41,483 bases of DNA from the IMG/VR virus record IMGVR_UViG_2565956725_000003, positions 1 through 41,483 of that record, one strand, 5' to 3'. The position numbers and the translations under genes are program-made. The stretch is from a virus. Lineage: Duplodnaviria; Heunggongvirae; Uroviricota; Caudoviricetes. Position 1 is the first letter of the stretch. Every line of letters begins with the position of its first letter. Shown piece by piece: positions 6,177-39,395 of this stretch. The notes beneath the pieces were generated by a model. It made no database searches, was not told the DNA's origin, and saw nothing but the letters and a program-made list of their open reading frames with translations.

Positions 6177-6193
6177 ATTACCTTTCGGGTAAT
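6177..6193. promoter_or_regulatory. operator-like 17-bp palindrome ATTACC-N5-GGTAAT (copy 1)
   Basis: ATTACCTTTCGGGTAAT, perfect 6+6 inverted repeat, in the divergent region between the tailspike start and the SOS-box ORF. Confidence 0.6.
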
Positions 6194-32217: not shown

Positions 32218-32994
32218 TTACTTGATAAATCCTGCCGCCTTTCCCCGCCTGTATTCCTCCATCAGCCACTGCGCCGGTGTTATTCCCCCAAGGGTGGCGG
32301 CGTTAGGCATGCACCCGAAACTTCGCCCTGGTGGATGGTAAACGTCTCTCCCTGTGTCCGGAGGTGTACTCATGGGCTCTGGCTTTGCCTGTATGCTGAT
32401 CACCGGATCGGGTATCTGCTGTCCGGAAGCCACCTTTTTCGCCCAATCATCGAGCAGCCTGCGCGCGTGTTTCTCAACCTCACTCTCGCTAAGCTGGCGC
32501 TGATACATTGCACGACGGGTATCACATACGACCCAGTACATAACCGGATGCCGCCACGGGAATCTTTCGGGACCACCAGGATATAAACTTTTTTCCTTGC
32601 TGTACCGGTGAAACTCCGCCATCACATCGTCAATGGTGACGCCAAGAACCATCTTGCTGTCTTTGCACCACTTGATGAATTGCCCTGGCGACGGCCAGAA
32701 CGGAGATTCACTGGCGCGGGCGTGGCGCATACCAGCGTTAACCTGTTCCATTGTAGTGATCCCATTCTCCAGAAACGCAAGCATCCATTGCTTACGGAAT
32801 TCATTAAGTTTGTTCTGCTCCCTTATGGTCGAAACGCTTGCAGGAAATGCAGCCTGTAACTGGACAAATAGTTCATTGAAAATTCTAGCAACCTGCTCCT
32901 TTTTGCCATTGCTGTCACGCCGCTCTTCATGCACAGCAACACCATGCTCACGTAAGCGATCGTACTCATTGAGAAGTTCTGGAGTTGATTTCAT
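32218..32994 (-). CDS. replication protein P-like (helicase loader)
   Basis: 258 aa; block FPASVSTIREQNKLNEFRKQWMLAFLENGITTMEQVNAGMRHAR...SPGQF aligns closely with lambda P as recalled. Confidence 0.8.
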   Translation of the reverse strand: MKSTPELLNEYDRLREHGVAVHEERRDSNGKKEQVARIFNELFVQLQAAFPASVSTIREQNKLNEFRKQWMLAFLENGITTMEQVNAGMRHARASESPFWPSPGQFIKWCKDSKMVLGVTIDDVMAEFHRYSKEKSLYPGGPERFPWRHPVMYWVVCDTRRAMYQRQLSESEVEKHARRLLDDWAKKVASGQQIPDPVISIQAKPEPMSTPPDTGRDVYHPPGRSFGCMPNAATLGGITPAQWLMEEYRRGKAAGFIK

Positions 32995-33796
32995 CCCACA
33001 CCCCTTCTATCCAGTCAGTGTTATTCCAGTCAAGCTCATCGCTTTTCCCGGCATTTTTTGATTTTCCCCTGATATGATTTACGTGCCTGGCGAATTTTTG
33101 TTCCCACTGAACCTGCGTGAACACTTTGCCCTCAGCCATCCAGTAATCCCGGAATGCAGCAAGTTCAGCAGGTGTAAATTCCGGTTCCGGCAGGGCCGTT
33201 CCCCACAGCGCAGCACGCCGCCGAAAATCTGGCGACGGTAGCCAGCCATCTGTCATCGGAAATTTCCCGATGGGTTCACTCAGGCCATCCAGAAATTCAG
33301 GTTCTGCCACCTGCAACGGCGTACTGTTCGCTTCACTGGTCGGAGCACCCTCGCGCACGTGCGCTATGTGTGGGGTTTTATATATATCTTCCTCTTCCTC
33401 TTCCTCTGGTAACTCCTTTTGTAACGCTGTTGGCGTTACTTTTTGCGTTACTCGTTTTCGATGCTCTGCCACTCTTCTATTCGTAAGTGCACGTTTTTTC
33501 GATGATTCTCCATTATGTCGCTCAAAGTTTGGAAGAATTAGTTTGCCGTCATGATAAGCAAGCCATCCGACGCTAATGAGGGCGTCAGCAAATCCTGTAA
33601 TAAAAGCGAGTCTATCAAGTACTCCTTTTGTAACGCTGCCAGCGTTACCGTCTATTGTTTGCTGGTCAGCCCATGCCCATATACGAACCAGCTTTCCAAG
33701 AACAGCATCTGGATCAATACCCAGAATTTCTGCTATCTGAAAAATTTCAGGTTTATCAGGAGTGATAACTTCAACCTTAATCCAGCTGCTTGCCAT
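32966..33796 (-). CDS. replication initiator (O-like)
   Basis: 276 aa from the second ATG (RBS AGAGGGG); acidic linker; C-terminal DnaT-like segment; ori-like palindromes lie inside the gene. Confidence 0.65.
   Translation of the reverse strand: MASSWIKVEVITPDKPEIFQIAEILGIDPDAVLGKLVRIWAWADQQTIDGNAGSVTKGVLDRLAFITGFADALISVGWLAYHDGKLILPNFERHNGESSKKRALTNRRVAEHRKRVTQKVTPTALQKELPEEEEEEDIYKTPHIAHVREGAPTSEANSTPLQVAEPEFLDGLSEPIGKFPMTDGWLPSPDFRRRAALWGTALPEPEFTPAELAAFRDYWMAEGKVFTQVQWEQKFARHVNHIRGKSKNAGKSDELDWNNTDWIEGVWDEINSRTSQ
33412..33648. repeat. ori-like iterons: two 19-bp palindromes GTAACGC-N5-GCGTTAC within an 18-bp direct repeat
   Basis: 33421-33439 and 33630-33648, each preceded by ACTCCTTTT; extra half-site GCGTTAC at 33445-33451; A+T tract 33376-33389; all inside the O-like gene linker. 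Confidence 0.55.
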
Positions 33797-33989
33797 AGGT
33801 TTCCCCTCTTGCACTCTTTAGTGCGCAAGCAAATTCATTACGATGGCGGTTGGCGCTATTCATTGCACATTCAACACATGTTCCGTTCAGAACATACCTT
33901 TCAGAGAGATGGCCGTGACGGCACCGCTTTCCTGTGAAATAGCGATTTAACCCGGCTTTTGCGGCCTCCATTCTGGTTACTATCTTCAA
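33777..33989 (-). CDS. small zinc-ribbon-like protein
   Basis: About 70 aa, start ambiguous (TTG 33989 or ATG 33971); CRHGH...CVEC motif; between the cro-like and O-like genes. Confidence 0.4.
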   Translation of the reverse strand: MKIVTRMEAAKAGLNRYFTGKRCRHGHLSERYVLNGTCVECAMNSANRHRNEFACALKSARGETYGKQLD

Positions 33990-34097
33990 TTTTTCCGCCC
34001 CTTTTTGTTATTGATATTGGCTATTTTGCACAATTGGAAAATTTGATCAACCAGATTTGGTTTTTTATTACCCTTAAGGTGCGAATAGATATGAAAA

Positions 34098-34115
34098 GAC
34101 CGCCGGATGGCGGTC
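34098..34115 (-). terminator. terminator-like hairpin downstream of the cro-like gene
   Basis: GACCGCC-GGAT-GGCGGTC; on the minus strand followed by TTTTCAT. Confidence 0.45.
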
Positions 34116-34137
34116 TACAGAGGGTTGTGGCTGGATA

Positions 34138-38986: not shown

Positions 38987-39095
38987 GTGCGCTGCTAAGG
39001 CACTGGAGCAAATGGTCAGGATGGTACTTATTCCTGGCCTCTGTTTCAGCATGGCTTTATCTGCTGGCATTAATTTTCAGAGAGGGTTGGATTAA

Positions 39096-39395
39096 GTGAG
39101 AAAGTTAAGCCGACTTGAAAAATATCACATGAACAAGGTTTCAATGCGCAGCCCTTCAAAGGTTGTTGCCGTTACTCCTGCGGCGATAGAGATCGAAAAA
39201 CGCGCGATTGAAAGAGAGAAAAAAGGGCAGTTCCGCATTGCCGCCCACCTTTGGCTTCAGTGTATGGATGTTGCTTCTGGTGATGTTGAACGTGCAAGGA
39301 TCGCGGTTCGCAGGGACCAATGTATCACAAAAGGTAACGGCCTTCGCCGTGGCGACTATAGCGGCATAGGATGTTGTGGGGTGGTTTATGACTAA
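39096..39395 (+). CDS. hypothetical small regulator-like protein
   Basis: 99 aa from GTG 39096; start uncertain; overlaps the methyltransferase start. Confidence 0.35.
   Translation: MRKLSRLEKYHMNKVSMRSPSKVVAVTPAAIEIEKRAIEREKKGQFRIAAHLWLQCMDVASGDVERARIAVRRDQCITKGNGLRRGDYSGIGCCGVVYD

Follow-up and report, generated by a model that had tools for sequence, protein, structure and literature searches.

A probable vegetative replication origin inside the initiator gene of an epsilon15/TL-2011b-like temperate phage

The window analysed here, a 41,483-nucleotide stretch of viral DNA, carries a replication initiator gene on the minus strand at positions 32966–33796, followed on the same strand by a lambda-P-like helicase loader gene (32218–32994) that overlaps the initiator stop by 29 nt. 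The loader was assigned by its matches to PF06992 (Phage_lambda_P, E 5e-56) and PHROG 109 ('P-like helicase loader', E 2e-89). The original prediction is to be corrected in that the initiator gene runs on the minus strand. The open reading frame list extends the gene to a GTG at 33814; every homologue begins with MA(S/G)xW, and the start was therefore placed at the ATG at 33796, giving a protein of 276 aa. This protein matches PHROG 2509, annotated as 'replication initiation protein', with an E value of 1e-129, covering 7–274 of 282.

In the initiator, an unclassified winged-helix-like N-domain is joined through an acidic linker to a DnaT-like domain, and the protein ends in a lambda-O-like tail. 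The putative DNA-binding N-domain (about aa 1–117) is encoded at 33446–33796 (minus strand) and is predicted to have a helix/beta-hairpin winged-helix-like core and a long basic helix, SSKKRALTNRRVAEHRKR. Searches of Pfam and NCBIfam returned no model for these ~117 N-terminal residues. The AlphaFold2 model of this domain, with a mean pLDDT of 75 and a core above 90, contains helices, a beta-hairpin and the long conserved basic helix, and a Foldseek search with it returned no match at E below 0.1. The DnaT-like single-stranded DNA-binding domain is encoded at 33050–33262 (minus strand) and was recognized through PF17948 (E 1.6e-18, 66.6 bits). The match to DnaT is at domain level only: the NCBIfam DnaT equivalog NF002770 scored 92.4 bits against a cut-off of 201 bits, over residues 171–252 only, and the initiator was thus rejected as a DnaT equivalog.

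The gene had initially been described as O-like. Its identity as a replication initiator inside a lambda layout stands, whereas homology to lambda O itself does not. PF04492 (Phage_rep_O) gave no match with the whole protein at E≤0.01 or with the N-domain at E≤1, and a BLASTP comparison with lambda O aligned the last ~55 residues alone, including LDxxNTDWIxGV (E 0.003, for a single comparison). Within this tail, the motif LDWNNTDWIEGV (32999–33034, minus strand; ~12 residues) resembles the lambda O C-terminus, LDLTNTDWIYGV. The motif is likely to be a docking motif for the P-like loader that is common to initiator families.

Two further features lie upstream of the initiator. A 70-aa Cys-rich ORF (CRHGH...CVEC; 33777–33989, minus strand) occupies the cII position between a cro-like gene and the initiator, matches PHROG 1081 (unknown function) and shares 20 nt with the beginning of the initiator gene. 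Directly downstream of the cro-like gene is a strong terminator-like hairpin, AGACCGCCATCCGGCGGTCT, with a T-rich tail (34097–34116, minus strand), a tR1-like site upstream of the replication genes.

The initiator belongs to a very large family; clustered at 50% identity, its members at E≤1e-3 have 7,227 representatives. Phages vB_EcoP_ZX5, HEMP4 and TL-2011b are nearly identical to the window in this region, and tblastn gave 68% identity to YdaU of the Rac prophage and 33% to the N-domain of epsilon15 p23. The gene is a mosaic: the N-terminal module (33372–33796) is also found in Enterobacter phage BUCT554, Klebsiella phage phi3.2 and Rac ydaU, and BLAST located the C-terminal module in other phages. 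The partners seen in relatives are DnaT+P, DnaC-like and DnaB-like.

Two 19-bp palindromes lie within the initiator gene at exactly the positions where they had been predicted. One, the linker palindrome GTAACGCTGTTGGCGTTAC (GTAACGC-TGTTG-GCGTTAC), is located at 33421–33439, and the other, GTAACGCTGCCAGCGTTAC (GTAACGC-TGCCA-GCGTTAC; hereafter site A), at 33630–33648, listed without strand. The pattern GTAACGC-N5-GCGTTAC has only these 2 matches in the 41.5 kb, with none more at ≤2 mismatches, and exceeds chance expectation, given that 0.06 were expected and 0 of 100 shuffles reached two. Both palindromes had been assigned to the part of the gene that encodes the acidic linker. This is correct for the cluster at 33421 only, as site A, at gene offset +148, encodes the N-domain surface loop GNAGSVT. 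In the AlphaFold2 model, site A corresponds to a lower-confidence loop between two helices, which fits a peptide that would be free to follow the DNA.

The linker palindrome is part of a larger array, site B (33409–33451, without strand), which lies in the linker just past the basic helix. On the plus strand, its half-sites are GTAACTC at 33409–33415 (1 mismatch), GTAACGC at 33421–33427 and GCGTTAC at both 33433–33439 and 33445–33451. The last of these is the extra half-site already noticed; the degenerate copy at 33409–33415 had been missed, and its inclusion makes the cluster one of four half-sites with an exact 12-bp period, arranged -> -> <- <- in gene orientation. The distance from site A to this array is 209 bp. 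The shared sequence ACTCCTTTT reported before each palindrome is present and extends into a 28-nt direct repeat with 25/28 identity (33412–33439 and 33621–33648). Its two copies are translated in different frames, yielding GNAGSVTKGV at site A and VTPTALQKEL in the linker.

Beyond the initiator gene, ten lone GCGTTAC/GTAACGC half-sites occur at 2687, 12084, 16288, 16384, 19690, 21287, 25945, 28889, 35292 and 40584, none of them paired as a palindrome. Window-wide, half-sites number 15 against about 4 expected, with a largest shuffle value of 10. Several other kinds of site, namely CII-type TTGC-N6-TTGC sites, DnaA boxes and known E. coli regulator boxes, were considered for this region and rejected on sequence inspection.

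The last half-site directly abuts a 21-nt purine run, (GAGGAA)3.5 on the coding (minus) strand and TCTTCC x3.5 on the plus strand, which was delimited with Tandem Repeats Finder at 33387–33407 and encodes EEEEEE. It had been described as a (CTTCCT)3 repeat at 33388–33407 encoding poly-Glu; the repeat is real, its extent is slightly larger, and it appears to be a polypurine DNA element more than a poly-Glu curiosity. Adjoining it is the A+T tract of the original prediction, a 12-nt pure A/T run, TTTTATATATAT, at 33376–33387 (without strand), a candidate unwinding start on the basis of its composition. The 20-mer beginning at 33377 is the least stable inside the gene and the fifth-least stable within 31–36 kb; the four weaker 20-mers in that interval are AT-rich and lie between genes or at gene ends.

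This tract is a feature of the family as a whole. In all specificity classes (defined below), the last half-site runs straight into ACC(A/T)GAGAAGAGAAGAGAAGA, or into (GAGGAA)n in enterobacteria. The median uninterrupted purine run is 20 nt, compared with 6 nt in 60-nt stretches drawn at random from these loci. Family-wide purine content over +10 to +25 is 91%, and the A+T excess of +0.30 at +30, which falls where the window has its A+T tract, is the top value of the ±400 nt profile. Codon choice follows the same trend: of the 83 arginine codons in the tract, 82 are AGA, a codon used at 6% elsewhere, and the leucine codon before the tract is TTA in 54 of 55, against 10% elsewhere in the N-domain. 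Given that both the purines and the AGA codons of the tract are conserved, it looks as if the DNA element gave rise to the peptides EKRREEK and EEEEEE. The (CTTCCT)3.5 of the window is the local form of this family-wide, near-invariant polypurine DNA element. The number of hexamer copies ranges from 1 to 5 among enterobacterial relatives and is 2 or 3 among relatives at ≥95% identity; since it varies among close relatives, the idea that the repeat changes by slippage holds.

The BLAST joint between the N-terminal and C-terminal modules falls at query positions 407–422, that is, window positions 33372–33387, which is the A+T tract. The coincidence suggests that the origin tract may double as a recombination joint at which loader-specific C-domains are swapped.

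For comparison across homologues, 160 loci from reference genomes and viral contigs were reduced to 66 representatives below 85% nucleotide identity, with a median G+C of 57%. Among the 56 diverged representatives that use the GTAACGC half-site, the site A palindrome (≤1 mismatch) is present at the same offset in 53 and the linker palindrome (≤1 mismatch) in 47, so the palindromes are kept in related phages; site A is absent from a few homologues (L040 and L048). The density of perfect half-sites is 9.4/kb over the initial 480 nt of the gene and 0.10/kb in the flanks, a ~95-fold enrichment. Neighbouring half-sites in this class are 12 bp apart in 164 cases and 11 bp apart in 43, and the linker arrays contain 2–7 half-sites, most commonly in the pattern '>><<'. 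The half-sites occupy two reading frames, with 106 '>' and 73 '<' in one and 21 '>' and 51 '<' in the other.

When five sequences with nucleotide identities as low as 68% were aligned, the half-sites proved invariant and the 5-bp spacers differed. Mismatches are frequent at the outermost half-site positions, as in the GCGTTAG of Pseudomonas, and the core AACG is invariant. In Rac ydaU and Rac-like relatives, a 12-bp (4-codon) insertion adds one more GCGTTAC half-site. Rac-like relatives also carry an additional palindrome in non-coding DNA, 20–45 bp upstream of the start codon; no copy of the palindrome was found upstream of the initiator start codon in the window.

Codon usage at these positions is similarly constrained. 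Among sequences with the same amino acid, synonymous identity is about 0.25–0.55 along the N-domain, compared with 0.91 for Gly, 1.00 for Asn, 0.98 for Ser and 0.74 for Val at the site A codons, and 0.96–0.99 at the Ala-Leu codons of the last half-site. At site A, serine is AGC in all 46 cases (25% elsewhere in the N-domain), glycine is GGT in 61 of 64 (25% elsewhere) and asparagine is AAC in all 54 (63% elsewhere). Because the 7-mers are kept in two frames, the synonymous codons are frozen and the spacers vary freely, the comparison shows that the half-sites are under strong selection as DNA and not as peptide.

GTAACGC sites were found in hosts ranging from Enterobacteria to Planctomycetes and Verrucomicrobia, an unusually wide host range for one recognition specificity. 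The planctomycete Stieleria magnilauensis carries two chromosomal copies of the N-domain with GTAACGC sites and the GA tract, 44 kb apart at 7.98 and 8.02 Mb (L012 and L013), and loci of Akkermansia (Verrucomicrobia; L010, L015 and L019) have the same combination. The N-domains from planctomycetes and Verrucomicrobia share 55–59% protein identity with that of the E. coli phage.

Four half-site classes were distinguished, GTAACGC, GTCACGC, GTAGACG and GTCCGC, and each locus uses its own class at all sites. The GTCACGC/GCGTGAC class comprises L075, L077, L079, L080, L082, L083 and Vibrio phage 1.211.A; GTAGACG/CGTCTAC is found in L078 and Ralstonia phage Raharianne, and GTCCGC/GCGGAC in epsilon15 and Pseudomonas phage phiPSA1. 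The change from GTAAC/GTTAC to GTCAC/GTGAC has occurred in both arms and at both sites, and entails an Asn-to-His replacement in one arm and a synonymous GTT-to-GTG change in the other. The C-terminal halves of the initiators and the neighbouring genes vary among loci of different classes, so that of all the proteins encoded there the N-domain alone is constantly associated with the sites. From this we draw our main argument, an indirect one, that the initiator binds half-sites in its own gene. Residue positions 9, 12, 15, 17, 30, 35, 105 and 109 discriminate the specificity classes, a signal that is confounded by phylogeny.

The elements follow the lambda order, with the sites succeeded by the purine/A+T tract, the C-domain and the P-like loader gene. 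On these sequence grounds, we consider it probable that the segment is the vegetative origin of an epsilon15/TL-2011b-like temperate phage, embedded in its own initiator gene. The lambda-like placement of repeats and A+T tract inside the initiator gene, central to the original prediction, gains support from the conservation and co-variation of the sites, the order of the tract and the presence of the P-like loader. Initiator dimers would recognize the 7-bp half-site GTAACGC via the N-terminal winged-helix-like domain, and would occupy the convergent array at 33409–33451 and the palindrome at 33630–33648, together with the upstream site where present. The bound dimers would build an O-some-like nucleoprotein complex able to open the adjoining polypurine and A+T tract (33376–33407) under negative supercoiling, an opening probably aided by rightward transcription. 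The C-terminal part of the initiator, with its DnaT-like single-stranded DNA-binding domain and lambda-O-like tail, would then recruit the lambda-P-like loader carrying host DnaB.

Some features count against the origin reading. The A+T run is just 12 nt long and is the least stable segment in the gene, not in its neighbourhood; and site A, which is separated from the array by 209 bp and missing in a few homologues, has no counterpart in lambda. GC skew reaches its minimum at about 34–35 kb, where the direction of transcription switches, and hence cannot discriminate the origin position. In PLSDB, the initiator module was detected in two records, CP088505.1 (E. coli, 52 kb) and NC_015459.1 (Pusillimonas, 41 kb); both carry phage-type genes and look like phage genomes, and thus provide no demonstration of a replicon. 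These circular molecules may be phage-plasmids or excised prophages.

A broader reading, which we put forward tentatively, is that the locus exemplifies an undescribed multi-phylum origin cassette, spread over >7,000 protein clusters (50% identity), in which lineage-specific arrays of 7-bp half-sites are welded to a near-invariant G+A tract, (GAGAA)n or (GAGGAA)n, that would be a dedicated origin element and more than a weak duplex. The loop GNAxSVT and the charged linker, EKRREEK or EEEEEE, would then be peptide by-products. As part of such a cassette, the polypurine tract could serve as a single-strand recognition track analogous to DnaA-trios, or could be an R-loop or primer site activated by transcription.

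The same sites might instead bind the initiator for autoregulation or copy control, as an operator, a transcriptional roadblock or through handcuffing, with the phage origin located elsewhere. Palindromes bound by Rep dimers are the classic operators of iteron plasmids, and this precedent lends the idea some weight. In Rac-like relatives, the third palindrome is found immediately before the start codon, a plausible place for repression, and the 209-bp gap between site A and the array would suit looping. Still, the sites lie 150 and 350 nt within the ORF, a poor placement for promoter control, and the window lacks the upstream copy. Moreover, the array is always joined to the polypurine/A+T tract at the domain boundary, as in the lambda ori. 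We therefore regard autoregulation in place of an origin as unlikely; the two roles are compatible and may well coexist.

It is less probable still that selection acts on structure rather than on protein recognition, with a DNA hairpin or cruciform, or an mRNA stem-loop, serving in pausing, RNA stability or as a primosome assembly signal. Each palindrome does fold as a 7–8-bp hairpin (−7 to −9 kcal/mol, z about −3 to −4), a terminator scan flags both, and the GTAAC-to-GTCAC change is compensated in the opposite arm, as a stem would need. Yet a stem needs complementarity alone, whereas the identical 7-mer recurs at every site in a genome. Many half-sites are direct repeats, in unbalanced numbers such as '>>>><', and the last one, which abuts the GA tract, is unpaired. 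The tolerance of outermost mismatches around the invariant core also speaks against a stem, and no Rfam family matches.

We give equally little credence to the idea that a host protein, the phage repressor or Cro binds the sites in place of the initiator. Nothing favours this directly; the plentiful TTACC-N5-GGTAA palindromes of the window, which are the epsilon15-type repressor operator, indicate that DNA-binding regulators are abundant here. That operator differs in sequence from the half-sites and sits in intergenic DNA. GTAACGC sites, moreover, occur from Enterobacteria to Planctomycetes and Verrucomicrobia beside different neighbouring genes, and the sites change sequence along with the N-domain lineage.

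The TTACC-N5-GGTAA palindromes form a set of their own. They occur 13 times at ≤1 mismatch against 0.73 expected, with 15-mers at 6178, 6558, 7599, 25273, 28420/28438, 32104, 32166, 34405, 34453, 35165 and 35227. Many copies, often paired, are intergenic and surround the region of immunity and replication genes, with some between the cro-like gene and the cI-like gene, and they share the design of the annotated 'repressor' binding site of epsilon15, ATTACCAAAAGGGTAAT. They differ from the initiator half-sites and probably make up a set of operators spread over the genome.

Lastly, the notion that the repeats have no function as DNA and merely reflect peptide conservation or chance can be considered effectively refuted by the sequence comparison: GNAxSVT and ALPE(K/E) are indeed conserved peptide motifs, but even 4- and 6-fold degenerate positions have frozen codons, the motif persists in two frames with different peptide products and has copies in non-coding DNA, and neither the enrichment over the flanks nor the number of palindromes agrees with chance.

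An origin inside an initiator gene is classical. What is new is the combination of this initiator family with its half-site array design, the distal site and the near-invariant polypurine tract, and no description of the origin of this initiator family was found in the searchable literature. If the origin reading is true, it would permit sequence-level origin prediction for a very large phage and prophage initiator family that has no domain model. Its members include YdaU of the E. coli Rac prophage, epsilon15/TL-2011b-like phages and prophages of Xanthomonas, Xylella, Ralstonia, Pseudomonas, Akkermansia and planctomycetes. The four half-site classes, co-varying with the N-domain, would constitute a natural data set on the recognition code. 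The family would likewise offer a case of an overlapping DNA function that dictates protein sequence, in which the rare codons AGA and TTA are kept at a median G+C of 57%. The conserved polypurine element would have a role in origin opening that is directly testable. For the window itself, the reading locates the probable ori and the joint at which loader-specific C-domains would be exchanged by recombination.

Among known systems, the closest counterpart is lambda, in which the origin consists of iterons and an A+T-rich tract in mid-O (PMC7466680). In the lambda record, four iterons at 39034–39118 are followed by ACAAAAGAAAAAAGAAAAGATTATT, encoding KEKRKD, inside O and just upstream of P. In both systems, the origin, putative in the window, lies within the initiator ORF at the joint of an N-terminal DNA-binding domain and a C-terminal loader-binding domain. 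In both, symmetric sites are followed C-terminally by a purine-rich A/T tract (ACAAAAGAAAAAAGAAAAGA in lambda) and then by the gene of a P-type loader, and the tract encodes a charged linker, KEKRKD in lambda and EEEEEE or EKRREEK here. Added sites also add residues in each case: the extra iterons of Stx phages lengthen O by 13 residues (PMC7466680), as in the 933W/P27 variants with six iterons, and the insertion in Rac YdaU adds 4 aa. The differences from lambda are equally clear. The N-domain of the initiator shows no sequence relationship to lambda O, with which the C-terminal tail alone aligns, and the C-domain is DnaT-like. In place of the four tandem 18–19-bp iterons of lambda there are 7-bp half-sites with an 11–12-bp period in convergent arrays, an extra distal palindrome inside the N-domain coding region, and a G+A polypurine repeat with a 12-nt A/T run.

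Rac YdaU has the N-domain of the window's initiator, at about 68% identity, with the GTAACGC sites in corresponding positions, and its tract is (GAGGAA)3. Unlike the window, Rac has a DnaC-like loader, YdaV, one more half-site and, ahead of the start codon, a third palindrome. Rac is reported to have an active origin, oriJ (PMC3945230), and the mapping of oriJ to ydaU is at present a lead only.

Iteron plasmids of the RepA/pi/TrfA type resemble the present locus in their winged-helix-type initiator, a fold that is predicted here, in sites about one helical turn apart, in the combination of inverted and direct repeats, and in an adjacent unwinding element, which is putative here. E. coli DnaT, the DNA-binding domain of which (PF17948) is matched by the C-terminal domain of the initiator, stands apart in lacking an origin-recognition N-domain and does not bind specific duplex sites.
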